Of a stretch of DNA of 52,623 bases, positions 2,973-46,465 are shown piece by piece (position 1 is the first letter of the stretch; every line of letters begins with the position of its first letter). Both the position numbers and the translations under genes were made by a program. The DNA is from a virus (Duplodnaviria; Caudoviricetes): positions 1 through 52,623 of IMG/VR virus record IMGVR_UViG_3300042923_001758; one strand, given 5' to 3'. The notes under the pieces are model-generated. The model did not search any database, was not told where the DNA came from, and saw nothing but the letters and a program-made list of their open reading frames with translations.

Positions 2973-3003
2973 GGGCTATGTACAATATACTTATAAGCGT
3001 AAT
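2958..3003 (+). promoter_or_regulatory. sigmaA promoter of XRE repressor (TTGACT-17-TACAAT) with operator at the start site
   Basis: TTGACT 2958-2963, TACAAT 2981-2986, operator TATACTTATAAGCGTAAT 2986-3003. Confidence 0.75.
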
Positions 3004-3045: not shown

Positions 3046-3468
3046 ATGGGCGAAATTGAAATATATAAAAAAGAAGATGGTTATAAGGGGTTGGTTCTTT
3101 CAGCATTAAGCGATGGCGGTAGACGTGTTTTAGACATGGCTACGGAAATAAGAATTACATGCAATTTGGACGAGCACCTTAAAGCGCTAGGTCTTACTCA
3201 AGCTGAACTCGCGCAGATAACAGGCATGAGGCAAGCGACCATCTCAGAGCTGGTTACTAAACGTAAAGCAAATGTTTCTATAGCTCATATGCTCGTTTTA
3301 ATGCTTATTCTCAAAATACCTAAATTCTCAGATATGTTCGAGATGACTTTCGACGAAGAAACAGTAGAACAAATGGCTAAAGATCGTAAGGCATGGGAGA
3401 AAAGCAAAAAGATACCCGAAGAAATGGCTGACCTTATGGTGGAAAATGTATTACGTAAAGTTAGATAA
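3046..3468 (+). CDS. XRE/Cro-C1 HTH regulator, probable prophage repressor
   Basis: 'LGLTQAELAQITGMRQATISELV' HTH; lone plus-strand gene in the early region with a sigmaA promoter and an operator. Confidence 0.8.
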   Translation: MGEIEIYKKEDGYKGLVLSALSDGGRRVLDMATEIRITCNLDEHLKALGLTQAELAQITGMRQATISELVTKRKANVSIAHMLVLMLILKIPKFSDMFEMTFDEETVEQMAKDRKAWEKSKKIPEEMADLMVENVLRKVR

Positions 3469-10486: not shown

Positions 10487-12784
10487 TTATGCTACAAGCT
10501 CGAACGCCCTACGTCCTGCTCCATTTTCTAACCATGTTCTTTTAGGAATACCCTCGCCCCATCTTATAGACACCTCAGTATCAACTTTATAAGGAACCTC
10601 AAGCGGGATAGTGTTCATCATTATGTGCTCGATTTCTGCTATCTCCTCCGCTGCTACAGTCTCGGGAACCTCTATCAAAATTTCATCGTGTACTGTAGCG
10701 AGTAGTTTCCACTCGTCACCCTTTTTCTCTAACCATTCACAAACGCCAATCATAGCGAGTTTCATAATGTCAGCGCTTGAACCCTGTATAACGGCGTTTA
10801 CACTCTGTCTTGCGACTCTGTTATAATCCTTTGCGATATCCCCATACTCACGCTTTAGCGCAAACGGTAGTTTAGTTTTCCATACCGAGCCCTCTAGCAC
10901 TTTGCCAAGTGCTTTTTCTACCTTTTCCGATACTGCCCTATACCTCTGTACCGTGTTTTTATGGCCTATAAATCTACGTTTACGCCCGTAAAGCGTTTCT
11001 ACATAACCAATATTGTCCGCCATTTTGTTAGTAGTGTCGATGAATTCTTTAACCTTTGGATAGGACTCGTAAAAGTCAGCGATAAATTCATCCGCCTCCT
11101 CTACAGTAATATCAAGCTGCCCTGCAAGGGTAAAGTTAGAGGTTCCATACATTACGGCGAGTAATCCTGTTTTCATCATCTTTCTATATTTGCTACCGTC
11201 TCCGCACTCCTCAATGGGCTTTTTAAATACCTTGCTCGCTAGGGTAGCATAAAGGTCTTTCCCGTCCTTGTACGGATAGCGGAGCTCCTCGTCTCCTGAT
11301 ATATGAGCAAGTACCCTCGGCTCAATCTGCGAGTAATCAATACCGATTATGAGTTTACCGTCAGGAGCTATGATAATCTTCCGAGCGTCATAAGGTAAGT
11401 TTTGGAGGTTCGGTTCACGACTTGCAAAGCGCCCCGTAACTGTTGCCGTTTGGTTAAATTGACCGTGGAGTCTGCGGTCTCTTTTGTGTACCTTTAACGG
11501 TAAAGGGTCTATATAGGTTGATAGAAGTTTGTTAAGCTCTCGATATTTGAGGAGAGTTGCTATTCCATTATGTTTTGTTTTAAGGATTTCTAGCGTGTCT
11601 GCGTCTACGCTCCTTTTATTGGATACGTCGGGGAGACCGAGCTCGTCGTAGAGCTTTTCTGCTAACTGCTGATTACTGTTAATATTGATACTCCCGAAAT
11701 AATAAAGGAGTTTAGACTCTAATTCTCTTACCTCTTTTGTTAACTTATCTCCGTAAGTTTTGGCGTAGTTTTGGTCTATCAAAAATCCGTTCTTTTCCAT
11801 TTCAATACATACGTTAGTTATCTTTTGCTCAATGTCAAAGTAGAGTCTTTTTAACTGCGGAACCCGATGCATCTGGTCGAGCTGCCATTTATAAAACTGA
11901 TAACATAGGTGTGTATCTTTACATGCGTAAATGTGCCCTATATCTAGCGGAGTTCCCTCAAACCCTCCGCGACCGAAAAGTTCTTCGTAAGTTGACGACT
12001 TATCATCAAAGCCGAAGTGCTTACCATATTTTGTGGCGAGCTTTTTAAGTGCGTAGCTCATTTCGTTCTCGTTAAGCAGCGTCATTCCGACCATAGTATC
12101 AAAGTGAATACCTCGAAGAATTACGCCATCATTACGCAGGATATGAGCGTCAAACTTTGCATTGTGGAGGATTTTTTTTAATCTCCTATTCTCAAGGTGA
12201 GACTTGATTTTCTTGAATACAAAACCTTTCGAGAGTTGCTTCTCTCCTGTTGTGTGTCCATAAGGGATATAACAATGCACATCTGCTTTTGGCAGCGTCA
12301 TGGACATTCCAACGGTGTAATCATTGTCGAAGTTAACACCTGTTGTTTCCGTATCGAAGCCGATTTCATCCTCATAATTTAATAGGTTAAGAATTTCGCA
12401 AAAATCCTGCTCCTCTACAATTAAGCGGTAGTTATCGGGCTTTTCTGCTATCATTTTCGCGATAGTTGCCTCTTTGCGTAACTCTCGGAGCGTAGCGTAT
12501 AGCTTTAGAGCATGAGTCTTTGTGAACTTATCAAGCGACTCGACATAGGTTCCCATTTCTCCTTTTTCTACCGCCTCTTTGACCGCGATCAATCTCTCAC
12601 TGTCTAGGTCTGATAGCTTAGTTTTTAAAATGGCTTTCTTTTCTGTTCCTGTATGGCTCTTGTAACCCTTTTCCCATATCTCGCCCCAAGTGGGAATATA
12701 CTTTGCAGCTTTCCTTTGTGCGTCTTTGACTCTTTGTTCTTTTTCCCTTTCGTCCTCCTGTGGCAAATTAATCTTAATTTCCAT
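10487..12784 (-). CDS. polA: Family A DNA polymerase with 3'-5' exonuclease
   Basis: 'DTETTG', 'HNAKFD', 'TGRFAS.EPNLQN', 'DYSQIEPR', 'YG', 'NAVIQGSSAD', 'VHDE'; start at 12784 after AAGGAG. Confidence 0.93.
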   Translation of the reverse strand: MEIKINLPQEDEREKEQRVKDAQRKAAKYIPTWGEIWEKGYKSHTGTEKKAILKTKLSDLDSERLIAVKEAVEKGEMGTYVESLDKFTKTHALKLYATLRELRKEATIAKMIAEKPDNYRLIVEEQDFCEILNLLNYEDEIGFDTETTGVNFDNDYTVGMSMTLPKADVHCYIPYGHTTGEKQLSKGFVFKKIKSHLENRRLKKILHNAKFDAHILRNDGVILRGIHFDTMVGMTLLNENEMSYALKKLATKYGKHFGFDDKSSTYEELFGRGGFEGTPLDIGHIYACKDTHLCYQFYKWQLDQMHRVPQLKRLYFDIEQKITNVCIEMEKNGFLIDQNYAKTYGDKLTKEVRELESKLLYYFGSININSNQQLAEKLYDELGLPDVSNKRSVDADTLEILKTKHNGIATLLKYRELNKLLSTYIDPLPLKVHKRDRRLHGQFNQTATVTGRFASREPNLQNLPYDARKIIIAPDGKLIIGIDYSQIEPRVLAHISGDEELRYPYKDGKDLYATLASKVFKKPIEECGDGSKYRKMMKTGLLAVMYGTSNFTLAGQLDITVEEADEFIADFYESYPKVKEFIDTTNKMADNIGYVETLYGRKRRFIGHKNTVQRYRAVSEKVEKALGKVLEGSVWKTKLPFALKREYGDIAKDYNRVARQSVNAVIQGSSADIMKLAMIGVCEWLEKKGDEWKLLATVHDEILIEVPETVAAEEIAEIEHIMMNTIPLEVPYKVDTEVSIRWGEGIPKRTWLENGAGRRAFELVA

Positions 12785-12800
12785 TGATTCAGCTCCTTTC

Positions 12801-12835
12801 AAGTATTTAGTAAAACTTGATAGGGTTTGTTACAT
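12801..12835 (-). promoter_or_regulatory. Phage-specific promoter copy 5 (polA operon)
   Basis: Minus strand ATGTAACAAACCCTATCAAGTTTTACTAAATACTT (16-nt spacer). Confidence 0.75.
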
Positions 12836-12940: not shown

Positions 12941-13642
12941 TTAAATTACGCTGATATCCTCGTCCTCGGTATCAATCGGCGTTCCGTTATCCTCTGCTGC
13001 CGAGTCGCTAATCATTACATCAAAGAACTGTGCTACTGGAAAGCCCGCATCTTTTAAACTCTTTACTTGTCCCTCGTAGTCACGAGCTTGTAAAACTGCC
13101 TCATAGAATGAAACCTCTACCTCCTGACCATCGAACTTTTCAAAGCTCACTCTATCCTCGTCAGTTACCTTTTTCTCAGGAACTACTTTAAGAGAATAGG
13201 CCGTAGCTGTTTTTGTACCCTTACGACTGAATGTGAATACTGCCTCGCTAAAATCGTAGTCACTTGCGAGCTCCTCGATTTCTGCAATTAATGAGGTCGC
13301 TTGATTTTTTGATGCGTCGAATACCCTTAACTCTCCGCTCTTTAAATCCGAAAACGCGAATAAATAACGCTTTTTAGCATATATTCTCTCGAACTCCTCT
13401 ATTCCGCTTTTGCTTGCCTCACATAGAGCGCATTTCTTACCCTCGGGAGCAATACAAGGCTGCGTATAAATGCCGAGGTTAAAATCTCCGTGCGCCTTAT
13501 ACTCTACGTAATCCTCTGCTGATAATAGTCTCACTTTAATTGAGTCTCCATCCTTGAGTTTAAGGAACACGTTTTTAAGGTCAACCTTTTTTGTCTCTGC
13601 TGATTTTCTCGCATCCTTACCTTTTGCTGTAATAATTGACAT
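12941..13642 (-). CDS. Phage single-stranded DNA-binding protein (gp32-like)
   Basis: 'LKLKDGDSIKVRLL', H/C zinc ligands, 'RKGTKT.T.Y', acidic C-terminal tail. Confidence 0.7.
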   Translation of the reverse strand: MSIITAKGKDARKSAETKKVDLKNVFLKLKDGDSIKVRLLSAEDYVEYKAHGDFNLGIYTQPCIAPEGKKCALCEASKSGIEEFERIYAKKRYLFAFSDLKSGELRVFDASKNQATSLIAEIEELASDYDFSEAVFTFSRKGTKTATAYSLKVVPEKKVTDEDRVSFEKFDGQEVEVSFYEAVLQARDYEGQVKSLKDAGFPVAQFFDVMISDSAAEDNGTPIDTEDEDISVI

Positions 13643-13716
13643 ATTATCATTCTCCTTAAGTTATATTTAGGGTGTCTTTTAATGTCCTAACCTTTTTTGG
13701 ACTATATAGGCAGCGG

Positions 13717-14382
13717 TTATACCGCGAATCCCCTTTCGTTAAGGAACTTTGAAAACAAGTCTTTTGCTCTTGAAACTCTTGTTCTTACGGTTCCGTAGCT
13801 TTCTGTTACATCTACATAAATGCTCAAGTATGCCTCTTTTTTAGCTTCTTTATCGTTGCTGTGCGTAAAGGTAGCCACAACTACCTCATACTCTCTCGGA
13901 TACTCTTTTTTAAACTCCGCAAGGATTACGTTTAAGAGATTGCTTTTGAGCTCTCTTTCAATGTTTAATTCAACGTCGGAGGACTTGTCCTCTATTAAAT
14001 CACCCATAAAGCCGCCCTCCTCACCGTCAAGCTCAAGATAAAGAGATAAATAGCCGTTTGTTGGAGAGTGTTTCTTGCTGCCTTGCTTTCTTATGATGTT
14101 ATTAGTATCAAGTTTCGCTACGCCATAGTACCAATTATTAAAGTTGCCTTTGCCCGCTTCGTATGAGTCTATAGCTTTTAAGAGTGACTCGAAAGATATT
14201 ATGCTTTCGATCTCGAAAGTATCTATAGAAAAGGCTCTCTGTTTATGCGTTACAACCTCTCGTAATACTCCGAGTACAATAGGTCTTACAATATTTACTA
14301 TCTCTGTGAATACTGCGTCGCTCTTTGTTGCTTTAAAGTCCTCTACCATTTGGTTCAATTGGATAATTTTAATCGCTGTCAT
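13717..14382 (-). CDS. Phage-encoded sigma70-family factor (SigH/ComX/ECF-like)
   Basis: Region 2-like 'ESLLKAIDSYEAGKGNFNNWYYGVAK...IIRK' and region 4-like 'YGTVRTRVSRAK'; start 14382 after AAGGGGGA. Confidence 0.75.
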   Translation of the reverse strand: MTAIKIIQLNQMVEDFKATKSDAVFTEIVNIVRPIVLGVLREVVTHKQRAFSIDTFEIESIISFESLLKAIDSYEAGKGNFNNWYYGVAKLDTNNIIRKQGSKKHSPTNGYLSLYLELDGEEGGFMGDLIEDKSSDVELNIERELKSNLLNVILAEFKKEYPREYEVVVATFTHSNDKEAKKEAYLSIYVDVTESYGTVRTRVSRAKDLFSKFLNERGFAV

Positions 14383-14410
14383 AATTTTTAAATCCCCCTT
14401 TGATTTGCTC

Positions 14411-14445
14411 AAGTATTTAGTAAAGCGACCCCCTGTTTGTTACAT
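14411..14445 (-). promoter_or_regulatory. Phage-specific promoter copy 6 (sigma gene itself)
   Basis: Minus strand ATGTAACAAACAGGGGGTCGCTTTACTAAATACTT. Confidence 0.75.
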
Positions 14446-14501
14446 GGGTTTTGCTGTCACTTTTTGACATAACTAAATACAAGAGATTCAAAGGAAGGTA
14501 C

Positions 14502-14533
14502 AAAAAAAGCTCCTCAATCCGAAGATAAGGAGC
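14502..14533 (-). terminator. Intrinsic terminator between structured RNA and sigma gene
   Basis: Minus strand GCTCCTTATCTTCGGATTGAGGAGC followed by T7. Confidence 0.75.
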
Positions 14534-14950
14534 ATAGCGCTTTTGTTAATTCCTACCAAACAACTAGGAATTAAACTTAAAAAAATACCCGAATGAGTAG
14601 GTAGTCCCCGTTAAAAGACCGCTATTCGTTCAGGAGCGCCGTTTGTTGAATACTGGCATAGTTTTTCGATATTTCTATCGAATGAAATAGACATAAGTAC
14701 GGGGAATATTTTAAATCTTTTTTGCTCTGTACTTGATGTCTAATGCCGATTTTGTATTCTCCCTATTTGAAGTCTTATATTCAGTTATGTACTATAGGGA
14801 TTTAAAAATTTCGTCTGTGCTCTATATTGTTTTAGAACACGAAACGGCTTGACTTTATTAGGTTTTCTAAATAATATGTTGTATGATTTTCTTTTATACT
14901 CAAAAGCGTATCAATGAACGTTCTCTTATACTAACACATTTCTTTTATAC
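14502..14950 (-). ncRNA. Candidate large structured non-coding/leader RNA
   Basis: No ORF; nested helices, G-U pairs favouring the minus strand, two possible pseudoknots, 3' terminators (see findings). Confidence 0.55.
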
Positions 14951-15009
14951 GGACTATAGTATAATAGAATGTAATTTATACCATAATACGTTATACTCTT
15001 AAGCGTAAT
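14895..15009 (-). promoter_or_regulatory. Operator cluster (4 sites) over extended -10 sigmaA-type promoter(s)
   Basis: Sites at 14895-14912, 14946-14963, 14977-14994 and 14992-15009; minus-strand TGGTATAAA extended -10 near 14975-14983. Confidence 0.65.
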
Positions 15010-15076
15010 GCCTTTATAGTAAAAATGCTTTATTTCGCTAGAAATTCGGGCATAAAAAAAGAGGAGATTAGGCTCT

Positions 15077-16039
15077 TTAACAGCTTAATCTCCAAAGAAA
15101 ATGATGGATGGAACTTGTGTTTTTTACTACCTCTGATATCTGTTCGGGAGGGATTTCGTTTACGTCTTTATACTGGGGAGGAATTAAAAGCTCTTTAAGC
15201 TCCGCGACTCCTGCGAAACGCTCCGCTATCTGTCGTTTAAATTTCTGTCCTACTGTGTCGTTATCTGTTGCAATTACTAATTGCTCAATCGGTGAGTCGT
15301 AGATTAATTTGTGCTGCACGTCCGTGATATTTGCTCCCCCGAACGCTATCGCGGGTATCCCGTGAGACCAAAGATAAAGCGCGTCTATTTCTGCTTCGAC
15401 TACGTATACCTCATTGTAGTTTCCTCGGTAAATAAAGTTTAATCCGTAGACGTGACTTTTCAGTGCTTGCCCTCCGCTCATATACCAAAATCTTTTATCA
15501 CTCACGCTACGATATTTTATATTTATGACCTTTCCTTTAACGTCCATCCATGGTAGAGTTATCGCTTTCGATCCCCTGTCAAAACCTATTTTAAAAGCTT
15601 TTTGCACTTTTTCGGATATGCCTCTCCCTTCTAAATATCCATGTCTAAATTGATACTTCTTAAGCTCATCAAATGGTACTATGATTGGCTCTGGTTTATC
15701 TATCTCAATAGATAAAGTCAGTTTAAGTGCATCTGTATCCGCTAATATCTCTCCGTACTTTTCAACTAGATAATCCTCAACCTCCTCAAAGGATACATTC
15801 ATAAAGTAGGATAGCAGTCTTGTAAAATTACCCTTTTTCCAACGATCGTCCGTAGAGCCCGAGTCTATCCACATTCCATCCTCAAGATTAACCGCAAAAC
15901 TCGGACGACGCTCATCTCTAAATGGACTACAGGCGAGAAGTTTCCCACCTCTTTCTGATACTCTTTTAAGTGAGTCAACATATGGAGTGAGCTCCTCTAA
16001 ATAGTTAATGTCTAGCTCTTGTCCTTTTATCTTATACAT
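15077..16039 (-). CDS. dnaG: DNA primase (zinc-finger + TOPRIM)
   Basis: 'CSPFRDERRPSF', 'VVEAEIDAL', 'IATDNDTVG', 'KDVNE'. Confidence 0.88.
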   Translation of the reverse strand: MYKIKGQELDINYLEELTPYVDSLKRVSERGGKLLACSPFRDERRPSFAVNLEDGMWIDSGSTDDRWKKGNFTRLLSYFMNVSFEEVEDYLVEKYGEILADTDALKLTLSIEIDKPEPIIVPFDELKKYQFRHGYLEGRGISEKVQKAFKIGFDRGSKAITLPWMDVKGKVINIKYRSVSDKRFWYMSGGQALKSHVYGLNFIYRGNYNEVYVVEAEIDALYLWSHGIPAIAFGGANITDVQHKLIYDSPIEQLVIATDNDTVGQKFKRQIAERFAGVAELKELLIPPQYKDVNEIPPEQISEVVKNTSSIHHFLWRLSC

Positions 16040-17328
16040 TAGAAATACTCTACCTCCCCTACAGCCTTACTTGTAGCTCTACTTTCTAAAATGTATCCTC
16101 TATTAAAATCACAATGCATCTCTAATTGTTTTCCTACGTGTGGCTCTCTACATTTAGCAAGTAGCAGCGCCCCCACTCCGTCGTGTTGGTCGAAAGTTAA
16201 GACTGTAGACGCGTCCTGTATTACCGCAATCGTCTCGGAGTATTGGTCAATACGTGGGGGAGTAACAATTCTTACGCCTGTTTCGTCCTCTGCTCTATTT
16301 TCCTTTTCTGCGCTAGTTGGCGTTTGATGAATAACGAGCCCTGCGACCTTGTGTCTCCCAAAAATTTGACGCAGCATACGGGAAGTATTAGCCATGTTGT
16401 TTCGGTTTCCGTCAGTTCCCTTATGTGTCATAAGGTTAAACCCGTCGATAATAACCATCTTTACATTAGGATTTGCTTGTAAATCTGACTCAATAACGCC
16501 TACGGTTAAGCCCTGTGGTAAATCCTCCATACACTTCACTATATAAGGAAATTTCTCATTCTCTGCCTTAAACTCCCCAAGGTATTTAAAATATTCCTCC
16601 TCGTTATTAAGCGTACCTCTGCGGATTGCAACGTTGTTAAAATGCCCGTTCAGCGTGTCTAGCCTAAATATCTGCTGTGACTTTGATAACTCGGGTGAGT
16701 AGTGAAGTACCCCGAAGTTATTACGCCAAGCTTCGACCGCTATCTGTGAGCCTATCCATGACTTACCCCTGTTCGTGTAGGCTTGCAGGAGAATATAGTC
16801 CCCAATCTCAAAACCTCCTCCGAGCCATTCGGTTAAGCTCGGATAAGGAGTCGGTATATACTGTCCTGTTCGTATCTCTTTGCTCTCCTCGTACCATTCT
16901 CGGCGCTCCTGTCCGTTCGTTGCGTAGTTGGTTCCTGTAGAGCTCGACGCGTTCGCCACGTCTTTAATTCTTACTGACTCCTCCGCCAGCCAATTAATAA
17001 ATTCGGTTCCGTTTAGAGTCTCGAACTTCTGCCCCGCCTGTTTTTGTAATAATTCGTATGCTTGACGTTTCGCTGTATTGGCCTTTAAGCTCTTACAAAG
17101 ATAGGGGAATGTATCGAATACCTCGGGCATATAGTCAAAGTCCTTATACTCAGCTACTACAGTCCTATAGTCGGGAGTTTCTCCGTACTGTCTGATATAT
17201 TCATTGATGAACTTATAAGCTTCTTTAAGGCTATAGAAGTCGTTCTCCTGTACGTTGTGCTTATTGAGTACGTACCCGTTACGCTCCTCTAATACCTTTG
17301 ATAATAATTTCTTTTCAATCAAGCTCAT
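16039..17328 (-). CDS. dnaB: DnaB-like replicative helicase
   Basis: Walker A 'AYTNRGKS', 'SPEL', Walker B 'MVIIDG', 'KCR'. Confidence 0.85.
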   Translation of the reverse strand: MSLIEKKLLSKVLEERNGYVLNKHNVQENDFYSLKEAYKFINEYIRQYGETPDYRTVVAEYKDFDYMPEVFDTFPYLCKSLKANTAKRQAYELLQKQAGQKFETLNGTEFINWLAEESVRIKDVANASSSTGTNYATNGQERREWYEESKEIRTGQYIPTPYPSLTEWLGGGFEIGDYILLQAYTNRGKSWIGSQIAVEAWRNNFGVLHYSPELSKSQQIFRLDTLNGHFNNVAIRRGTLNNEEEYFKYLGEFKAENEKFPYIVKCMEDLPQGLTVGVIESDLQANPNVKMVIIDGFNLMTHKGTDGNRNNMANTSRMLRQIFGRHKVAGLVIHQTPTSAEKENRAEDETGVRIVTPPRIDQYSETIAVIQDASTVLTFDQHDGVGALLLAKCREPHVGKQLEMHCDFNRGYILESRATSKAVGEVEYF

Positions 17329-18098
17329 TAGAATAATCCTCCCTTTCTTTTGTCTGCTCCGACTAGCTCCACAGGCACCGCCATACCCTCTATACGGCTT
17401 GCTATTCTATCTCCTAACATGTCTACAAGTGCCTCTATAGTGATATTTGACGTGTATAAAGTTGTAAGCCCATTAGTTGCTCTCGTGTCAATTATCTCGT
17501 AAAGTTCGTTAAGATACGCCTCTGTACCACCCCTTACTGCGATATCATCGAGTATAAGCAGGTCTACGCTAGTCATAGATTTTTTGTATCTTGAAAACTT
17601 ATAGCTTGCTTTTTCCTTTACAGTAAAATCACCCTTAAATTGATCGTTGTAGATATTCTGATACTCGCTCGCTCTCATAAATAGCGCAGGATTAGAGTTT
17701 ATGCGGTTCTCCCCACTTACATGGAGTTTGACGCGCCATATTACAAACTCATTTAATAACGTAATTGCGGTTGTTGTCTTGCCAGTTCCTGTTCCGAACT
17801 TGTTCGCCTCTGTCGGTACTGAAAAGAGATAGAGTCCTACGTTTCTATCGAGAATAAACTCGCCCATGCTCTCGGCGTACTTCTTGATACGCTTATAAAC
17901 TTGCGGGTTATCTTTATCTATAGGAAGATTTTCGAGCCTACAATCGTCATACTTTTTCGGTACGTTCCTAGTGCGCCAAAATCCACCATCCCCGTTTAGT
18001 CCATGCATATAGGTGTAGTACGTACAAAGGGGATTGCAGCGCTCCTCATTCCCGTACTGCTTGCATTTAGAACTAAATATGCAATTATTTATAGACAT
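17328..18098 (-). CDS. DnaC/IstB-like helicase loader ATPase
   Basis: 'GTGTGKTT', 'LLILDDI', 'TLYTSN', 'RIASRI'. Confidence 0.88.
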   Translation of the reverse strand: MSINNCIFSSKCKQYGNEERCNPLCTYYTYMHGLNGDGGFWRTRNVPKKYDDCRLENLPIDKDNPQVYKRIKKYAESMGEFILDRNVGLYLFSVPTEANKFGTGTGKTTTAITLLNEFVIWRVKLHVSGENRINSNPALFMRASEYQNIYNDQFKGDFTVKEKASYKFSRYKKSMTSVDLLILDDIAVRGGTEAYLNELYEIIDTRATNGLTTLYTSNITIEALVDMLGDRIASRIEGMAVPVELVGADKRKGGLF

Positions 18099-18114: not shown

Positions 18115-18849
18115 TTATTCTCCGAATAAGCGCTTTAATTTGTCGCTAGTCGCCCTTTGAGCCTTATCTCTTTGCACGTTGTGCTGCTTAATTGTGGCTA
18201 CCTCTTTGCGTCTTTGAGCCACTACCTCCGCTGCTCTTTTAGCGAGCCAATTCGAGAGCATAGTAATTGACGGTCTAGGGTATTCACGTTTAGCCCATAA
18301 TTTCGAGTAGTCCTTAATTGAGACCTCTATAATCTCTGCGAGCTCGTCGTCCGAGAATTTCCCGATTAACCCTTTCTTAATGACTGCTATATCACGGCTC
18401 CAATTAATGACATAGCTTATGCTGAACTCCTCTTGATAAAGTCTAGCGAATAGTTTTGCGATATCTTTAGCTGTGAGCTTGTTCTGGTTAATCTCCTCTA
18501 TAAATACCTCTACATTTACGGTCTTACTTTCACCAATTGAGATATCCGTTAAAAAAATATCATTAACCTTAATTATTTCCCTCTGCTTTCCGTCCACTAG
18601 AGCAATAACTCTTTTTAATAACGGCTCACCGTTGTAATTAATGGTCTCTAATGATTTAATATCTGATCCCGTAGTTTTGCGGGTTCTGCCTGTTATCTCT
18701 GCAAGTCTTGTAATAGTCATCTTTGCAATCCCGTTATCATCTGAATTTGCTACGGTGTGAAGCAAGGTAAAGACTGCTCCGTTTGGTACTTTATCAAATA
18801 CTCCTAGTTTCACTATCTTACTAAATGCGTTGTTTGCCTTAACTGCCAT
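18115..18849 (-). CDS. Probable phage replication initiator (N-terminal winged HTH)
   Basis: 'MTITRLAEITGRTRKTT' HTH; directly upstream of loader, helicase and primase. Confidence 0.65.
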   Translation of the reverse strand: MAVKANNAFSKIVKLGVFDKVPNGAVFTLLHTVANSDDNGIAKMTITRLAEITGRTRKTTGSDIKSLETINYNGEPLLKRVIALVDGKQREIIKVNDIFLTDISIGESKTVNVEVFIEEINQNKLTAKDIAKLFARLYQEEFSISYVINWSRDIAVIKKGLIGKFSDDELAEIIEVSIKDYSKLWAKREYPRPSITMLSNWLAKRAAEVVAQRRKEVATIKQHNVQRDKAQRATSDKLKRLFGE

Positions 18850-19651: not shown

Positions 19652-20014
19652 CTACCTTTCCTCTATATGCCTATATAGATTGTAGAGTTTGTCATACATT
19701 TCCTGCTTTCTGTCCTCGTTCAATTTGCTCCTCTGTACCTCCCCTATCGTTTTCTTAAGTGTTTTACCCTCTAGTGCCGCCCCTGTGAGTATCGGTTCTT
19801 TACCAAAACAAGAGAATAACTCCTCATCAGGTATATCCAAAAAGTTTGATATTTGTCTTATAGTATAATCGCTAGGGACTTTCAATCCTTGCTCTATTTC
19901 CAATAAATATATAGCTGATAGGTTTATTTGTTTTGCCATCTGTCTTACAGTAAAGTTTTTAAGCTCGCGATTTTTAGTTATAATTCCTTCCCTTTTAGCT
20001 CCATTTTTCTCCAT
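19652..20014 (-). CDS. XRE-family HTH regulator
   Basis: 'RELKNFTVRQMAKQINLSAIYLLEIEQGLKVPS'. Confidence 0.85.
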   Translation of the reverse strand: MEKNGAKREGIITKNRELKNFTVRQMAKQINLSAIYLLEIEQGLKVPSDYTIRQISNFLDIPDEELFSCFGKEPILTGAALEGKTLKKTIGEVQRSKLNEDRKQEMYDKLYNLYRHIEER

Positions 20015-20222
20015 TTTACGTTATTCCCTCCATCTCCCATTTTAAATTAGAGATTAACAATAGTATGAGTTTTTCCAATCTTATTATACCAAAACCCCTT
20101 AATCACAAATAATTCATTGTACAACATTAAATATAACTCATCAATACTTTATACTCAAAAACGCATTAGACAAAGCAATCACAGCTTTATTTACCGTTCA
20201 CTAGAAAAAAAAAGAAGGGCGA

Positions 20223-38396: not shown

Positions 38397-38972
38397 CTAC
38401 AAAGCAACCTCTCTCGTTAATTCACGTCTATTTATTTCTCTATATAATGGAGCCTTTGTTACTCCTGTCTTTCGTGTTATCTCTGATACGGTATATCTAC
38501 CACTCGCCCAAAGCTCGACAGCTAAGTCCATCCTATCATTATTTACAGGGGGTCTCCCCATCCTAACACCCTTTTGTTTAGCGATGGCTAGTCCCTCTTT
38601 TGTACGCTCTACTATAATCTCTCGCTCAAACTGCGCTAGAACCGCCAGCATACCGAACATTAACCGCCCACTCGGGGTTGTTGTATCTATATTTTCCTTA
38701 AGACTAATAAGCTGTACTTCACGCTTCTTAAACTCCTCACATACTGCTATTAGTTGAGAGGTAGAACGTGAGAGACGAGTTAACTCTGCTACTACTACGA
38801 TATCTCCTTGAGAAAGCTCGTTCATCATTTTATTAAATTCAGGGCGATTTGTTTTACCTCCGCTCACTTTTTCAAAATAAATCTTATCAACTTCAAATTT
38901 ATTAAGTATTTCAGTTTGTCTGCCGAGTTTCTGGTCTATTGTTGACACTCTTGCATATCCTATTTTTGCCAT
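38397..38972 (-). CDS. Small serine resolvase/invertase
   Basis: 'IGYARVST.DQ', 'RLSRS', 'ERTKEGL', 'GRP', C-terminal HTH. Confidence 0.93.
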   Translation of the reverse strand: MAKIGYARVSTIDQKLGRQTEILNKFEVDKIYFEKVSGGKTNRPEFNKMMNELSQGDIVVVAELTRLSRSTSQLIAVCEEFKKREVQLISLKENIDTTTPSGRLMFGMLAVLAQFEREIIVERTKEGLAIAKQKGVRMGRPPVNNDRMDLAVELWASGRYTVSEITRKTGVTKAPLYREINRRELTREVAL

Positions 38973-38990
38973 GTTACCATCTCCTATCTC

Positions 38991-39023
38991 TATACTTAAA
39001 GTTGTATTACGTATATAAGTATA
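38991..39023. promoter_or_regulatory. Tandem 18-bp operators upstream of resolvase
   Basis: TATACTTAAAGTTGTATT (38991-39008) and ATTACGTATATAAGTATA (39006-39023); same 15-bp offset as at ardA. Confidence 0.55.
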
Positions 39024-39242
39024 TAATAATATAAAAGCTCTAAAATTTCAACAAAATTCGTCAAGACTTTAAATTATTACTTCTGCTGTCTTTCAAATAT
39101 TCTACCTGATACTATTAAAGTGTGTTATAATAAAAAATATTTCAAAATGCGTATAGTTCAAATAAATTAAAATGTTGTGGTAAATAAAACAAGAGTTCTA
39201 CTAATCAGATAAATAAAATATGTACTAATAAAAGAGGTAAAA

Positions 39243-40286
39243 ATGATGCATAAGAATAAAAAGACAAATAATCTGACGAAATTTATGCTTGTTATAATAG
39301 CTGCTATTCTTATATACCTAATAATTATGTGTGGTGTATTGATATTTGTATTAAATTCTTCAAATAGTAGAGAAGAAACAAACATTTCTATAAATGAATC
39401 AAAGACTTCTATACCAATAAATAATAAAGATAAAAATATTAGAGGTAATACAACAGGCAACATCCGAAATTCTGGACTAGCTGCTATTCAAGGAGACTGG
39501 ATTTATTATTCGAATTCTTCTGATGGAGCATCTATATATAAAATCAAGACTGATGGTACTCAAAAAATAAAATTAAATGATGTCCCAAGTACAAACATAA
39601 ATATAGTTGGTGATTGGGTTTATTATAAAAGCTTTAGTTCATCAACTATAGAAAAAATGAAAATTGATGGTAGTGAAAATACACAATTAAATGTAAAAGT
39701 AGACTCATACATAAATGTTGTAGGTGATTGGATTTATTATAATAATTTTGATGATGACCAAACATGTATATATAAAATCAAAACTGATGGTACTCAAAAA
39801 ACAAAATTAAATAATGAAACCAGCTATGATATTAATATAGTAGATGATTGGATTTATTATTCATCTGCTTCTGATGGCGATTCCTTATATAAAATCAAGA
39901 CTGATGGTACTCAAAGAAAAAAATTAAATAATTCCAAAAACCTAGGTATTGTTGTATACAACGATTGGATTTATTATGCAAATTATTCTGACTGGGGAAC
40001 CATATATAAAATTAGAATAGACGGTACTGATGAAACGCCCTTAAATACGCAGCTAAATACAGAAGCAAGTGCATACTTAAATGTTTCAGATGATTGGATT
40101 TATTATCAAAATCCTAATGATAACTTTTCCGTTTATAAAATAAAAATAGATGGTAGTGAGAATACAAAATTAAATAATACATATAGTGAGTCTATAAATA
40201 TAGTAGGTGATTGGATTTATTATAGAGATGAAAAAACTCTTTATAAGATGAAAATTGATGGAAGTGAAATCAGTAATGTCGATTAA
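39243..40286 (+). CDS. DUF5050-like beta-propeller surface protein with N-terminal membrane anchor
   Basis: Seven about-40-aa repeats 'DWIYY....IYKIK.DG....KLN' after a TM helix; 'GNT.GNI.NSG'. Confidence 0.85.
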   Translation: MMHKNKKTNNLTKFMLVIIAAILIYLIIMCGVLIFVLNSSNSREETNISINESKTSIPINNKDKNIRGNTTGNIRNSGLAAIQGDWIYYSNSSDGASIYKIKTDGTQKIKLNDVPSTNINIVGDWVYYKSFSSSTIEKMKIDGSENTQLNVKVDSYINVVGDWIYYNNFDDDQTCIYKIKTDGTQKTKLNNETSYDINIVDDWIYYSSASDGDSLYKIKTDGTQRKKLNNSKNLGIVVYNDWIYYANYSDWGTIYKIRIDGTDETPLNTQLNTEASAYLNVSDDWIYYQNPNDNFSVYKIKIDGSENTKLNNTYSESINIVGDWIYYRDEKTLYKMKIDGSEISNVD

Positions 40287-40400
40287 TAGTATTAGTCTCA
40301 TTTAAAGAGAGTGTAAAATAATCTTTTTAAATTGCTTTCTATAATAATTAATTGTGTGGCAGAAAGGCAACAGTATGGCGTTTCTGACTTAGCTACAATA

Positions 40401-40474
40401 TAGTATGCATAAAAGCACATGTCAAAGCCCCTCTCATCAGAGGTTGCCCTTGACATGTGCTTTTATGCATACTA
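40401..40474. repeat. Perfect 25-bp inverted repeat
   Basis: TAGTATGCATAAAAGCACATGTCAA (40401-40425) / TTGACATGTGCTTTTATGCATACTA (40450-40474). Confidence 0.9.
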
Positions 40475-40557
40475 AAGAAGAAGCCTTCCCTCAAACATAA
40501 TACTAAGTTCTCCGTATAATTCTGCTCCAGTTATAAAGTAAATTTTTTAGGCTCTCC

Positions 40558-40596
40558 CTAAATTCTTTGAATATCTTTCGTATGATTATCAGCTAT
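40558..40596 (-). pseudogene. Possible remnant of vsr (very short patch repair endonuclease)
   Basis: (ATA)ADNHTKDIQRI* directly after the R-M operon resembles the Vsr N-terminus MADNHT. Confidence 0.3.
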
Positions 40597-40612
40597 ATTC
40601 GTACTCTATCAA

Positions 40613-42490
40613 TTAAACGTTGTAATAAATAATATTGCCCGGAAGTTTAATATTGGGAATCCAAATCTTCTTACCATCCCAGCCTTTGTTTCCTGTTACT
40701 TTATACATAGTCAACACTACCTCATTAGGATAAGTATCACCAAGTTTTCTATCGTTTGGTGATAATAGAGTTCCCGTTCCTTTTGCTATGTCCCTATTTC
40801 TGCGGACGATTAACCTGCCTTGAGCTAAAGGATTTTCAGCAATGAATGTATTTATAAACCCTACAAAAGCCGAAATACTCCAATCATCCATCTCAGAACT
40901 GGTTTGTTCTAATAACCGCATAATAAGCTTTAAGCTTACTAAATATGATTCTTCAGAAAATGCCACTAACAACTGATCAAGCAAATCTACATCTTTATTG
41001 ATAGGATAAAAAGGAAAATAGTTTACACCTCCTGAAAATACGTCAACTGATTTTTTATCAAGTACGTTTTTTCGTGTTGGCTTTAATCCTGTAGGATAAT
41101 AAATCTTGATATCACAATTTTTGCTTTGTTTTTTAATCTGAGCTATTATACTATTGTTTGTTGTATTAATATCCGAAAATAGTTTATAAAGTATCGGAGG
41201 CATAAACACACGCATTAAAGCATGGTCTCTGTCATAACCAAACATACGGGCGTGCTGCCACATTGTATCAGCTTGAGGATTTTTTGCAACTCTGCAGTAA
41301 TAAATTGTCTGCAGTTGTGGGAACGTGACCCCCCTCCCTAGACTGTTTCCTCCAATTATAATATTTATATCATTTTCATATTTAACATTTTCATCGTAAG
41401 GAGTAAATGAATTAATTACTAAAACCTTCACCATATCATTTTCAAGCTGATTACATATGAAAGCAAATATATTGTTAAAAGGTTGAATATTTGTCTTTGT
41501 TGCTTTAAGATTTTCATACACAAGTCTAAAAGCATCAGCTGTTTCTGGTTCCTCATATGTTATAGAAATTTCATTAAGATAATCCCCAATTTTTTCAGCA
41601 AACTTACTATGCTGATCAGTACGAACACTAGGATGAATTAAAAAATTAGAAACTTTTCCTCCTTCTAAAAAAATGTGCGCAGATGTTATCAAATGCATCA
41701 TAAGTGCATTTTTTAATCCATTCTCTGGAAATTCATCATCTATTAATAGTTCATCTGCCTCATCATTGTCTGTAAAAATAAGGTATGGAGTTTGTTCATT
41801 ACCAAAGAAAAAGTTCCCACCCAAGTATCCTTGACCGGGTTCAAAGTAATATGTAAAATACGGTTTCCATCCGCTTTGAGCAGTCTGAAGCAGAATAGCT
41901 TGAGGAGTACCCGTGACTTGCATATATATACTACTAGAAGTCGTCCGTTTAATTTCATCCAATAACTTATTTATAGTGCTTCGCTTTTTTTGATTTACCA
42001 TTGTATTTAAACTGGCAGCGTCTGCTTCATCATCCACAATGAATAAGGGATTACCCGCACAAAAATTAGTTGAAGATATGTTATTTTTCCATTGTTTTAG
42101 TATCCTGCCATTTTTCTTTAATACAACAACTACAGGTTTTCGCAAGTTATTATTCACAAAAGATAAGTAATCATTTTCATCGCAAATGCAAAACTCACTT
42201 AGATCTTTCTGAGCTCTTCTAAAAGTCTGCTGTTGTAGCAAAATATTATCCGTTGTTAATAATAGAAAAATGCCGAATCCTTCATCAGCTGCAGCACTCA
42301 TAAGACCAAACATATGACTGGTTTTACCACTTTGAACGTCCCCAACTAAAAGACTAACAACGTGATCTTTAAAAGTAAAATTAGAAACATACTCTGGTAT
42401 AATATCTTTTACAGTTTTATTTATTGCATCTGCAAGCTGCTGATTACCTCGTTTAACTATTCTATCCAAATAACAGTTTAAATAATTCAT
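40613..42490 (-). CDS. SF2 helicase-like ATPase with Z1 domain (H.CglI / N.NgoAVII-like subunit)
   Basis: 'GDVQSGKT', 'IVDDEAD.ASLN', 'TGTPQA', 'GGNSLGRGVT', 'DTMWQHARMFGY'; ATG overlaps REase stop. Confidence 0.85.
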   Translation of the reverse strand: MNYLNCYLDRIVKRGNQQLADAINKTVKDIIPEYVSNFTFKDHVVSLLVGDVQSGKTSHMFGLMSAAADEGFGIFLLLTTDNILLQQQTFRRAQKDLSEFCICDENDYLSFVNNNLRKPVVVVLKKNGRILKQWKNNISSTNFCAGNPLFIVDDEADAASLNTMVNQKKRSTINKLLDEIKRTTSSSIYMQVTGTPQAILLQTAQSGWKPYFTYYFEPGQGYLGGNFFFGNEQTPYLIFTDNDEADELLIDDEFPENGLKNALMMHLITSAHIFLEGGKVSNFLIHPSVRTDQHSKFAEKIGDYLNEISITYEEPETADAFRLVYENLKATKTNIQPFNNIFAFICNQLENDMVKVLVINSFTPYDENVKYENDINIIIGGNSLGRGVTFPQLQTIYYCRVAKNPQADTMWQHARMFGYDRDHALMRVFMPPILYKLFSDINTTNNSIIAQIKKQSKNCDIKIYYPTGLKPTRKNVLDKKSVDVFSGGVNYFPFYPINKDVDLLDQLLVAFSEESYLVSLKLIMRLLEQTSSEMDDWSISAFVGFINTFIAENPLAQGRLIVRRNRDIAKGTGTLLSPNDRKLGDTYPNEVVLTMYKVTGNKGWDGKKIWIPNIKLPGNIIYYNV

Positions 42491-43545
42491 TTTGTCACCC
42501 CAAAATCCAAATACCATAAGTTAGGTATTGTTGTTTTTGTAAAAGTGAATGTATCACGTCCATATCGTCTCAGAGTTTCCTGTGTTACAGGTTCTCCAAC
42601 AGATAGTGCCCCTGCATTTTCCAATCTCCCCTTTAGCCATTTTCCCAATATTTTAAGATCACTCTCAGACCGAAAATTTTTACTGTAGTCTCCACTGATT
42701 TTACACTTAAATTTCCACCCATCATCTGTAATTACATCAAATAATGCTTCATCTGTCTTACTTTTGGGATAATGCATTTGATCTGTTATAGGCTTTGGTA
42801 CAATCAACTCAACTTCATACCAATGGCGTGGCTTAACAAGTCCGTTTTTACCAACACGTCCTCGCCCGAAAAATGCATTGAGATTGCTCTGAGGAGATAC
42901 TTCTGCACCTTTAATTGGAATATTAAAACATATCTCCGTTTGACTTGAAAGACATTGAGCCAATACTTTCGTATCAACTTTTTCAACATGTTCATGATTC
43001 TCAAGCAAAGGATTTTCTTTCTTAAATTGATCAATATCTAAAGCTGCAATATTTTCAGTTGACGTACGGTTAAGCTCATGAATAAACTTCTGCATTTGCT
43101 GTGCGTAATCTGCATCATCTATTAAAACTGAGGCTTCATATGTCCTGCTGTTACTTTCCACAATACTACTCAAATTGTTTGAACCAATTATACCCGCAAA
43201 AGATCCTTTAGCATCTCCATAAGAATACATTTTTCCGTGGAAACGAAAAGGAGTTACCAGTCGAACTTCCCCACATCCATTAGCCATAAGAAAATTGTTG
43301 AGGTCAATCGCAGTTTTGTATTCAACCGCTGTAAACTTATCCAGATAATGCATACCAATGGTAAGATTCATTCTTTCAATGTTATTCAATTCAACAGCTT
43401 TTTTTAGCTCTATTAGTGCCTCTGATGTTATATAACCAACAGCAATATCTAATTGGCTTGTACGCGGAAGCAGAGAATAAAAAGCATCAGAAAATCTTGA
43501 CATTTTCGTTCGCATCGGCGGATAGTTTGAGAATAATAGTTCCAT
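42487..43545 (-). CDS. PLD-family restriction endonuclease (NgoFVII/NgoAVII/CglI-like)
   Basis: 'IAVGY', 'FHGKMY', 'GSNNLS' PLD motifs with C-terminal recognition domain 'RHWYEVEL...KNFRS..DL..LG.WLKG.L'. Confidence 0.85.
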   Translation of the reverse strand: MELLFSNYPPMRTKMSRFSDAFYSLLPRTSQLDIAVGYITSEALIELKKAVELNNIERMNLTIGMHYLDKFTAVEYKTAIDLNNFLMANGCGEVRLVTPFRFHGKMYSYGDAKGSFAGIIGSNNLSSIVESNSRTYEASVLIDDADYAQQMQKFIHELNRTSTENIAALDIDQFKKENPLLENHEHVEKVDTKVLAQCLSSQTEICFNIPIKGAEVSPQSNLNAFFGRGRVGKNGLVKPRHWYEVELIVPKPITDQMHYPKSKTDEALFDVITDDGWKFKCKISGDYSKNFRSESDLKILGKWLKGRLENAGALSVGEPVTQETLRRYGRDTFTFTKTTIPNLWYLDFGVTK

Positions 43546-43557
43546 ACTGACATCTCC

Positions 43558-44667
43558 TTATACCATTTCTTTTGTAACAAAATCCAAACGTTCTTTCACT
43601 GACAGCTTAGATAATTTTTCATAGACTTCGTATAAATCAACTTTTTCATAATCACCAGTAAATAAAGGCTTCAATCTTCTGGCAACTACCCTAACTCCCT
43701 CTGGCGGAACTGCATTGCCAATCTGTCTGCGAACTTCTGCAATGCTCCCTATGAATTTAAAATCATCTGGAAAAGATTGAAGACGAGCCCTCTCTCTATT
43801 CGTTAAAGGTCTAGGCTCTGGATAGTGATAACCCCATGTACCGCCACCTCCTGCGGCAATTATTGTTTTAGCTGGTTCGTCCAATTTAATTCTTCTATAT
43901 ACATGACTAATCATTCCTTTTACGTAAAGCGGATGATCTTTAGGGATATCTGTAAAATTTCCGCCCTCTGGTATTAACTCCAGCATTCTTTTTGTTTTAT
44001 CCATACAATTAATGTGCTCATTATTATATTTTACATTTTTAACTCCTTGTAAGGCTTCTCCTGCAGTTACATATGGAAGCGATGTATTGGGTCCATGTGT
44101 TGGCTTGGGATGAATAAAATTAAATCCTGTATCTATTCGCACCCCTACAATTAATAATCGTTCCCTGAATTGTGGAACTCCATATTCAGCAAAATTGTAT
44201 AGATGTGGTTTTACAACATACCCAGGTGCAATACTTTCAAAATCTTTAATAATGGTTTCAATGGCTTTTCTTTTGTTTGCAGTTAAGAGTCCCTTTACGT
44301 TTTCGGCAACAAACGCCTTAGGTCGCTTTGCATCAACAAATTCAAGAAAATGTCGATATAATCCTCCTCTTTTACCACTTAAGCCCGGCTGTTTCCAAAT
44401 TATCGAAAAATCCTGACACGGAAAACCGCCCAATATTATATCACCATCAGGGATAGTCTTGTCGTCGTATGGGTTTATTTCAGTTATATCTCCAAAGCGA
44501 ATTACATCACCAAAGTGCTCTTTGAATGATGCAACAGCCCATTCTGAAAAGTCATTTGCCCATATAGTATTATAGCCTTCTAAATGAAAGCCCAAGTCCA
44601 AACCTCCGCATCCTGAGAAAACGGACACGACGTTCGGCGAATAATTTTGTTTAATTTCGGTTTTCAT
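43558..44667 (-). CDS. DNA (cytosine-5) methyltransferase
   Basis: 'FSGCGG', 'GGFPCQDFS', 'ENVKG', 'QFRER', 'RERARLQSFPD', 'QIGNAVPP'. Confidence 0.95.
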   Translation of the reverse strand: MKTEIKQNYSPNVVSVFSGCGGLDLGFHLEGYNTIWANDFSEWAVASFKEHFGDVIRFGDITEINPYDDKTIPDGDIILGGFPCQDFSIIWKQPGLSGKRGGLYRHFLEFVDAKRPKAFVAENVKGLLTANKRKAIETIIKDFESIAPGYVVKPHLYNFAEYGVPQFRERLLIVGVRIDTGFNFIHPKPTHGPNTSLPYVTAGEALQGVKNVKYNNEHINCMDKTKRMLELIPEGGNFTDIPKDHPLYVKGMISHVYRRIKLDEPAKTIIAAGGGGTWGYHYPEPRPLTNRERARLQSFPDDFKFIGSIAEVRRQIGNAVPPEGVRVVARRLKPLFTGDYEKVDLYEVYEKLSKLSVKERLDFVTKEMV

Positions 44668-44743
44668 AGTAATAACTCCTCTTTAGTTCTAGATTAGCCT
44701 CGGATTATATTTTAATTGCATTATTAATATAATTAGGCAATTA

Positions 44744-44956
44744 TTATTTATTGCGGACAAGTAGTTCATTAACGTCACAGTCAAATAGGAAACAAATTTT
44801 CTCTATCGTATCAAAGTCAATACGAGTAGCCTTGTCATTGTACAGGTTGGAAATAGTATTCCTCGACAAGCCTGTTTTTTCATGAACATCTTTTATTTTA
44901 TACCGATTTTTTCCCATCAAAGTTGATAGGTTACTCTTTATAGTCAAATCCGTCAC
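44744..44956 (-). CDS. XRE HTH regulator (controller-like) of the R-M operon
   Basis: 'KIKDVHEKTGLSRNTISNLYNDKATRIDFDTIEKIC'. Confidence 0.85.
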   Translation of the reverse strand: MTDLTIKSNLSTLMGKNRYKIKDVHEKTGLSRNTISNLYNDKATRIDFDTIEKICFLFDCDVNELLVRNK

Positions 44957-45825: not shown

Positions 45826-45872
45826 TAAAAAAAGAGGATACCCATAGTCTTGCGATAACTACGGATACCCTC
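45826..45872 (-). terminator. Terminator after terS
   Basis: Minus strand GAGGGTATCCGTAGT...ACTATGGGTATCCTC followed by T7. Confidence 0.75.
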
Positions 45873-45897
45873 ACTATTCAGTACTGCTTTTAACTTA

Positions 45898-46320: not shown

Positions 46321-46465
46321 TAACAAAACCCCCTCTATGAATTATTTTTCTCGGCATGTACGTCGGGCATTTCGCGGAATTTATCTTAATCACATATCAA
46401 GCATTCAGCGAGCCTCAGCGTGGGGGCATGACACTCGAAATGGAGCCGTTTGGAGCTCTCTATAG

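Follow-up and report, generated by a model that had tools for sequence, protein, structure and literature searches.

Organization of the Primase-Sigma Gap

The virus record IMGVR_UViG_3300042923_001758 (Duplodnaviria; Caudoviricetes) comprises 52,623 nucleotides (nt), all of which were analyzed here and are referred to as the window; it is a prophage-like region within a 3.44-Mb assembly of 39 contigs, and nearly all of its genes lie on the minus strand. This report concerns the noncoding gap between the gene for a DnaG-type primase and an open reading frame (ORF) for a divergent sigma-like factor, which on the minus strand can fold into a large multibranch domain and then presents two terminator-like hairpins ahead of the sigma-like ORF. 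An initial annotation had described an ORF-free gap of 600 bp at this position; the gap measures 664 nt and is indeed noncoding, with no minus-strand ORF of at least 30 amino acids (aa). Small minus-strand ORFs of 21-28 aa within it lack a visible Shine-Dalgarno (SD) sequence and were judged to be noncoding. The gap sequence is single-copy in its own genome. The flanking genes and the domain, drawn as its minimum free energy (MFE) fold, are as follows.

15077-16039, minus strand: DnaG-type primase (Toprim domain and zinc ribbon), directly upstream of the gap
14638-14848, minus strand: multibranch domain P1-P7, ~210 nt
14638-44 / 14842-48: P1, closing helix, GCCGTTT / AAACGGC
14840-14817: P2, hairpin
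14800-14760: P3, hairpin, TCCCTAT / ATAGGGA
14648-53 / 14754-59 and 14655-59 / 14743-47: P4/P5, GAATAC / GTATTC and GGCAT / ATGCC, enclosing a three-way junction
14742-14688: P6, long hairpin with a 28-nt loop, TAGACATAAGTAC (14688-700) / GTACTTGATGTCTA (14729-42)
14682-14665: P7, hairpin, TTCGAT / ATCGAA
13717-14382, minus strand: sigma-like ORF, 221 aa from the ATG at 14382, or 231 aa if the TTG at 14412 is the start codon

Folding of the Multibranch Domain

Every helix, hairpin and terminator listed in the initial annotation was found by sequence inspection and repeat searching, and the MFE fold of the minus-strand RNA of 14636-14850 is exactly the multibranch domain that had been proposed from the sequence. 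This core reaches -51.3 kcal/mol against a mean of -27.5 kcal/mol for shuffled sequences (z-score -6.62; 0 of 200 shuffles as good), so the expectation that the region would fold better than shuffled controls was borne out. Longer segments give similar results (z -5.29 for the minus-strand RNA of the 366-nt unit 14495-14860; z -4.70 for the minus and -5.74 for the plus strand of 14502-15009), the minus-strand folds of both containing these helices too, and the minus-strand RNAs of three further intergenic regions of this phage score -1.87, -2.61, and -3.03. An alternative to P1 exists, in which CGUUU pairs with AGACG to lengthen P2 and GGCGCU pairs with AGCGCU around the first terminator.

The strand of the putative RNA is indicated by orientation rather than by pairing. 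It had been argued that plus-strand C-A mismatches turn into G-U pairs on the minus strand, which would identify the latter as the RNA; this asymmetry did not hold, as the minus fold contains 11 G-U pairs and the plus fold 8, at about equal energies, and each strand loses ~24 kcal/mol when given the structure of the other. The elements consisting of a hairpin and a U-run, of which there are three in the region, are all oriented on the minus strand, like all of the flanking genes, in agreement with the initial annotation.

Two long-range pairings of the P6 loop had also been proposed as pseudoknots. Both complements are present (ACGGGGA at 14699-705 with TCCCCGT at 14605-11, and 14709-17 with 14799-807), and with the targets picked post hoc they are matched by 10 and 27 of 1000 loop shuffles. 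When the loop was compared with all upstream or all downstream sequence, 110 of 1000 and 88 of 1000 shuffles, respectively, were as good, so the pseudoknots do not rise beyond chance.

The initial annotation had not recognized the RNA family, and the RNA matches no described one. Rfam 15 (4227 models), applied to the whole window at gathering thresholds, returned no match; a search of 14300-15200 with E values up to 10 returned four matches, all with E of at least 6.3 and with 14.8-18.8 bits against gathering scores of 55-117.

Predicted Terminators, Sigma Leader and Loop-Leader Pairing

Hairpins with U-rich tracts, the leader of the sigma-like gene and the pairing segments lie as follows:

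15053-15093, minus strand: intrinsic terminator of the primase operon, stem 15093-15063 followed by UCUUUUUUUA, overlapping the primase stop codon (-14.5 kcal/mol, z -2.59)
14579-14634, minus strand: terminator T1, interrupted stem 14634-14588 followed by UAUUUUUUU, 4 bases after the domain
14546-14574, minus strand: 10-bp hairpin between T1 and T2 (z -3.28)
14502-14533, minus strand: terminator T2, stem 14533-14509 followed by UUUUUUU (-12.8 kcal/mol, z -2.46)
14383-14501, minus strand: leader of the sigma-like gene, 118 nt (-33.1 kcal/mol, z -5.06, 0 of 200 shuffles as good)
14498-14488: anti-SD segment CCUUCCUUUGA, directly after T2, pairing with the SD region at 14402-14392
14773-14790, minus strand: segment A, in the P3 loop, pairing with segment B
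14484-14467: segment B, an arm of the leader, with segment C (14421-14408) as a local alternative partner

The primase terminator, T1 and T2 each combine a hairpin with at least seven U-rich bases and are predicted to be intrinsic terminators. The apex of T1 holds the ACGGGGA that is complementary to the P6 loop.

The leader that follows T2 is itself compact. Its SD sequence is mostly paired (unpaired probability 0.17) because CCUUCCUUUGA pairs with the SD region. Just upstream of the ribosome-binding site (RBS) of the sigma-like gene lies an inverted repeat, CTCTTGTATTTAGT / ACTAAATACTTGAG (14408-14485; 12 of 14 positions complementary, 50 nt apart), and since the P3 loop can pair with one of its arms as well, three segments compete for that arm. 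The helix between segments A and B has 18 uninterrupted pairs (16 Watson-Crick and 2 G-U) and is the longest possible in the 731-nt minus-strand RNA; a helix of at least 18 bp was reached by 1 of 150 dinucleotide shuffles, and the duplex of the leader arm with the upstream RNA, at -23.3 kcal/mol, was equaled by 0 of 500. In the RNA that would result from read-through, A:B is predicted to form with a pair probability of 0.99, in place of the P3 stem and of the local helix between B and C. The coupling of domain and leader is thus real as complementarity, and in such an RNA it would physically couple the domain to the expression of the sigma-like gene. A further complement of 15 bp joins the J2/3-P3 segment to the SD and spacer of the sigma-like gene (-17.9 kcal/mol; 4 of 500 shuffles as good).

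The product of the ORF is divergent. It matches Pfam Sigma70_r2 at E 0.04 (14.2 bits, below the cut-off of 24), has no PHROG family and no PDB relative, and has 3 matching proteins, itself included, among 5.8 billion clusters. A tblastn search against phages gave no match, and the protein, alone or as alignment A1, retrieved no locus in viral, genome or metagenome contigs. Its closest protein relatives are P0003 and P0006 (both from one 43-kb contig, on which the sigma-like protein is 76% and the primase 77% identical to that of the window), P0004, P0007, and P0008. Homology searching with phmmer ties it to ORFs occupying the corresponding place in 15 related loci (E 5.6e-11 to 4.2e-4). Nine syntenic ORFs, including phmmer-linked ones at E 2.6e-9 and 1.6e-6, were scanned for Sigma70_r2: two scored above the cut-off (L024, 30.7 bits; L061, 30.9 bits), three scored below it, and four had no sigma match. 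In Bacillus phage PK2, the syntenic gene carries a sigma-factor annotation. Because two of the syntenic ORFs pass the Sigma70_r2 cut-off and because of the PK2 annotation, "sigma-like" appears to be a reasonable name for the ORF, and the assignment made in the initial annotation draws support from transitive homology.

Candidate Promoter and Operator-Like Motifs

Upstream of the domain, as read on the minus strand, lie a candidate promoter element and several repeated motifs; the third copy of the 16-nt motif and the two HTH genes, elsewhere in the window, are listed with them:

14975-14983, minus strand: candidate extended -10 element TGgTATAAA
14992-15007, plus strand: 16-nt motif TATACTNNNAAGCGTA, 11 nt upstream of the candidate -10 element in the minus-strand reading
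14895-14910: 16-nt motif TATACTNNNAAGCGTA, inside the half-site cluster
2986-3001: 16-nt motif TATACTNNNAAGCGTA, overlapping the -10/+1 region of a helix-turn-helix (HTH) gene promoter
14889-14969: five 11-nt half-sites TTCTYTTATAC, forward at 14889, 14921, and 14940 and reverse at 14908 and 14959
3046-3468, plus strand: Xre/Cro-C1-type HTH gene, the sole plus-strand gene inside the phage
19652-20014, minus strand: second HTH_3 (Cro-like) gene, just after the endolysin gene

The candidate -10 element, which was read from the sequence and would place the start of the RNA near 14967, is of the same type as the TGgTATAAT near 20.09 kb that precedes the Cro-like HTH gene; a consensus promoter scan proposed TTGATA-17-GAAAAT at 14914-14886 instead. 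The 16-mer TATACTNNNAAGCGTA has exactly three perfect copies in the 52.6 kb and none in each of 100 shuffles, and a near copy (two mismatches, same flanking bases) is found at 20150-20165, upstream of the TGgTATAAT of the Cro-like gene. The half-sites make up two palindromic sites of ~30 bp, 51 bp apart, and one extra half-site; this five-half-site cluster is found in this gap only. The promoter of the Xre-type gene is a strong one (TTGACT-17-TACAAT).

The initial annotation had placed the promoter under several operator copies, and repeated motifs do cover the region. Because the 16-mer also lies at the promoter of the opposite-strand Xre-type HTH gene, its distribution has the pattern of a repressor regulon, in which the same motif occurs at regulated promoters including that of the regulator itself; as judged from the sequence, this lends real support to gating by operators at these putative binding sites. 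The protein encoded at 3046-3468 is a candidate autoregulated repressor of a regulon that would include the gap.

A plus-strand promoter-like sequence, TTGACT-17-TAATAT (14849-14877), abuts the domain and points toward the primase gene; the 16-mer copy at 14895-14910 lies just downstream of it, in the same layout as at the HTH gene promoter. This site could be an antisense or divergent promoter.

Natural Variants and Related Loci

One sequencing run, which may be the source of this DNA, contains the whole stretch; contigs of 151 nt from three other metagenome runs (two further studies) match it at 95% identity or more. Together these contigs cover 14549-14830 only, and the flanks outside that range carry no weight either way; all of the runs are DNA runs, with depths of 2-2.8. 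They differ from the window at four sites, none of which breaks a helix (0 of 4). T14694C, found in two runs from different studies, changes an A-U pair of P6 to G-U on the minus strand and to a C-A mismatch on the plus strand. In the same two runs, G14704A lies in the P6 loop and would change one pair of the loop-T1 pairing, if that is real, to G-U on the minus strand. T14662A (one run) is in an unpaired part of the junction, and an extra T after 14717 (three runs) is in an unpaired part of the loop. The one stem change, T14694C, favors an RNA from the minus strand.

Related loci were gathered through a primase alignment (A2), which yielded 11 genome loci and 78 viral loci with primase identities of up to 52%; the annotated phages FA67 (Clostridium), PK2 (Bacillus), and Tripp (Paenibacillus) were added. 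Other routes brought nothing comparable: the primase alone as an anchor found no locus in viral contigs, 5.5 kb of flanking genes gave weak polymerase matches only, the 664-nt gap had no match in the phage collection in distant mode and one spurious match of 43 nt by BLAST in 46 genomes of the family, and a 20-mer chosen where the core varies least occurred 0 times in viral, genome and metagenome contigs. Matches of ~40-50 nt to P3 from blastn or from models, in L067-L072 and L029-L032, were not significant and were dropped.

Relatives keep the order helicase loader, helicase, primase, gap, sigma-like gene. The corresponding genes of the window, other than those listed above, and the two genes that follow the sigma-like ORF are:

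17328-18098, minus strand: DnaC-like helicase loader, an upstream replication gene
16039-17328, minus strand: DnaB-like helicase, upstream of the primase gene
12941-13642, minus strand: SSB-like protein, downstream of the sigma-like ORF
10487-12802, minus strand: family A DNA polymerase, downstream of the SSB-like gene

In 52 of 87 measurable loci, a distance of 300 nt or more (up to 1.7 kb) separates the primase gene from the nearest following ORF of at least 70 aa on its strand, a count that ignores shorter and opposite-strand ORFs and includes several near-duplicate loci. In L009, L019, L029-L031, L041, L042, and L049 this distance is 0.8-1.7 kb.

The gaps of the relatives fall into many unrelated sequence families, among which that of the window is a singleton. 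Strong folding (z of -4 or lower; 20 shuffles each) was seen in 7 of 22 representative gaps, and these strongly folding gaps contain three or four palindromic operators of the type TTACAG-N4-CTGTAA together with internal terminators. In L007, L018, L020-L022, L024, L045, L046, and L061, three to four copies of such operators flank an internal terminator on both sides, and L045 and L046 have two terminator-like hairpins in tandem inside the gap. By a crude finder, a hairpin with a U-run lies inside 14 of 18 relatives' gaps, three of the 18 being near-identical. The gap of PK2 carries repeated AATTACGAAAT-like motifs, comparable to the operator-like repeats of the window; unlike the window gap, it has no notable fold.

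Siphophages of this group (PK2; L007-L095) thus share with the window the gene order, operator-like repeats and, in many cases, an internal terminator before the sigma-like gene, whereas their gaps have no sequence or covariance-model similarity to the RNA described here, and the segments that precede the terminator in the L018 group are ~100 nt. Because the relatives keep the order, the operators and the terminators but lack the fold, the layout (operators, a short transcribed segment, one or more terminators, a sigma-like gene) is, as far as sequence comparison goes, conserved in kind, and the large fold is lineage-specific. Conservation in related phages, on which the initial annotation had made its proposal depend, was therefore found in these loci for the layout and not for the multibranch fold.

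Elsewhere in the window, the region 38397-46326 has the look of an inserted island: a stretch of ~7 kb separates a small-terminase-like gene (45898-46326) from the packaging and structural genes. It holds a DNA invertase (38397-38972), a DNA methyltransferase (43558-44667), a DUF5050 protein encoded on the plus strand (39243-40286) where GC is only 25%, and two large ORFs without assignment.

Possible Functions of the Region

Our preferred reading, which is a tentative one, is that the gap holds an operator-controlled unit on the minus strand, whose folded RNA ends at T1/T2 and which serves as a gate for the sigma-like factor. A promoter set amid repeated protein-binding sites would give rise to a strongly folded minus-strand RNA of ~390-465 nt, composed of a 5' region, the 210-nt domain P1-P7, T1, the 10-bp hairpin and T2, with its default end at T1 or T2. 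Neither a reading of the sequence nor a promoter scan made a sigma-A-type promoter evident between T2 and the start codon of the sigma-like gene. Because of this, the gene would depend on RNA polymerase passing T1 and T2, as probably would the SSB-like and polymerase genes, and this dependence would make the unit a gate, either as an attenuator or as an antitermination leader. In the read-through RNA, the P3 loop would pair over 18 bp with the sigma leader, in which the RBS would be buried by the local anti-SD segment.

A more elaborate version of this gate, which we consider decidedly improbable, is that the RNA acts conditionally: it would sense a protein, a metabolite or a physical cue, decide on the passage of T1/T2 and afterwards set translation by refolding onto the sigma leader via the 18-bp helix, so that a single cis-acting RNA would time the phage-sigma switch.

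A number of observations weigh against the gate. T1 alone is a weak, interrupted hairpin (-14.8 kcal/mol, z -1.06), and a stricter terminator scan of 13500-16000 listed no terminator. The plus strand of the core (z -5.87) and its minus strand with single-stranded DNA parameters (z -4.19) also fold well, so that structure alone neither proves an RNA nor fixes its strand. No RNA run contains the stretch, the metagenome runs with it being DNA. The four variant sites are too few for statistical support. Covariance model R1, built from the single sequence and its structure, retrieved no counterpart of the RNA: across 92 related loci the best E was 0.83, and 150 genomes of the order gave no match. 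Strong z values in the relatives (from -4 to -8) are largely explained by palindromic operators, with terminators, and the gap of PK2 (374 nt) is unstructured (z -0.87). Masking segment B raises the unpaired probability of the SD sequence from 0.17 to 0.18 only; a release of the SD sequence of the DsrA kind is accordingly not seen in silico, and no simple translational switch emerges there. Among 34 other genes, 2 have start regions that equal or surpass the complement to the SD region. As for early transcription, the promoter near 20.09 kb, in front of the Cro-like HTH gene, is stronger than the candidate in the gap and of the same type; the distribution of the 16-mer suggests that it, and not the gap promoter, is probably the main early promoter, which makes it doubtful that the gap gives rise to the main early transcript, as the initial annotation had it.

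Of the other explanations, the one that fares best, although we find it unlikely, is a stand-alone noncoding RNA (ncRNA), from which the terminators insulate the sigma-like gene and which acts in trans, for example with the P3 loop (possibly with J2/3) on the leader or RBS of the sigma mRNA, or on another target. Tandem terminators right after a compact fold would suit such an RNA, as would its 18-bp complement to the sigma leader and its 15-bp complement to the SD and spacer, and the position of the relatives' operators between the internal terminator and the sigma-like gene suggests that the latter may have a promoter of its own. In this phage, however, no sigma-A-like promoter is visible at that place, the complement to the SD region is unspecific, as the comparison with other start regions indicates, and no RNA run contains the stretch.

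It is distinctly unlikely that the gap has no dedicated function and is a patchwork of operators, promoter and terminators in which inverted repeats and AT-richness fold by accident or as decayed remnants. The lack of a homologue, the chance level of the pseudoknots, the part that operator palindromes and terminators play in the folding of the relatives' gaps, and the fact that the strand is not discernible from pairing are all in keeping with such a view. Yet the core (14638-14848) is free of repeated motifs and terminators and has the strongest z-score of all, its helices are nested rather than local palindromes, it is at least 95% identical in contigs of three other runs with no helix broken, and the 18-bp pairing that ties it to the leader is statistically significant.

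In lactococcal phage c2, origin function depends on a structured noncoding transcript; where a phage has a DnaD-like or O-like organiser, the gene for that organiser usually contains or adjoins the origin. That the gap serves as a replication origin, or encodes a primer or activator transcript associated with one, with the 11-mers as iterons for the phage initiator and the inverted repeats as single-stranded DNA structures or origin RNA, is very unlikely: the gap does lie within the replication module, with the primase gene on one side and the SSB-like and polymerase genes on the other, bears the 11-mer five times in both orientations, is lower in GC (0.35 vs. ~0.40 in the adjacent kilobases), folds well on both strands and with DNA parameters, and has large counterparts at the same place in the related loci, but the 16-mer is common to the HTH promoter and the early-promoter region in the manner of a repressor regulon and not of iterons, nested helices extend over 200 nt with oriented terminators behind them, T14694C retains pairing only in minus-strand RNA, the origin would usually be expected at the organiser gene, here near 18115-18849, and the cumulative GC skew has no turn at the gap.

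Relation to Known Systems and Significance

The gate for which we argue has counterparts in kind. Late genes of lambdoid phages are gated by PR' and tR', between which a short terminated RNA (lambda 6S RNA) is made, and the downstream genes need read-through. StxS of Shiga-toxin phages is reported to be a short terminated RNA of the same type (PMC7547250). The arrangement in the window is similar in that a promoter, a close terminator and a block of phage genes follow each other, with a short ncRNA as the presumed default and read-through for the rest. It differs in that no Q-like antiterminator was identified in it, the RNA is far larger and multibranched, there are two terminators, and what follows is a sigma-like gene in a siphophage of the Gram-positive type, behind a promoter with repressor-type sites.

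In HK022 putL/putR and in the Bacillus EAR element, which is included in Rfam, an RNA of ~70-120 nt with a defined fold, located between a promoter and downstream terminators, renders RNA polymerase terminator-resistant. The layout agrees with that of the window, where the fold also lies between promoter and terminators; the RNA here is larger and has no Rfam match, and an antiterminator of the put/EAR type directly before its own terminators would make these pointless unless its action were conditional.

The leader of rpoS has an arm that buries the RBS, and DsrA is complementary to that leader. Here, too, the RBS of a sigma-like mRNA is predicted to be buried by a leader arm and an RNA segment is complementary to the leader; in contrast to rpoS/DsrA, the complementary segment lies upstream on the same transcript or the same strand, and masking the leader arm leaves the SD sequence buried in silico. 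Riboswitch and T-box leaders of Firmicutes likewise combine a fold of 200-300 nt, an intrinsic terminator and a regulated gene, with a possible contact between loop and terminator; the RNA of the window has no match to an Rfam aptamer or any other Rfam family and no ligand candidate, and its loop-T1 pairing is apical rather than basal and at chance level (88 of 1000). ROOL and GOLLD are large structured ncRNAs in Firmicutes prophages; the RNA described here matches no Rfam family, is smaller, and is sited by a regulatory gene instead of tRNA clusters.

In a limited literature search, no account of a structured RNA ahead of a phage sigma gene was found. Terminated leaders that gate phage regulatory genes are already known as a kind; what is new here is how the RNA folds, which gene it would gate and that a loop pairs with the leader, and the element stays a candidate. 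From its sequence it is plausibly a lineage-specific structured leader or ncRNA.

Phage sigma factors reprogram the host RNA polymerase, and to our knowledge the timing of their synthesis is known for very few phages. In siphophages of the Bacillus, Paenibacillus, and Clostridium type, the sigma-like gene consistently comes after a long noncoding region with operators and terminators, and in the present lineage that region is a large compact fold with an 18-bp tie to the sigma leader. If the fold is not functional, the locus still provides a clean operator regulon, in which three promoters share the 16-mer and one gene is a candidate for the repressor; if it is functional, it would constitute a new RNA checkpoint between replication genes and sigma-dependent transcription, as well as a new Rfam family.

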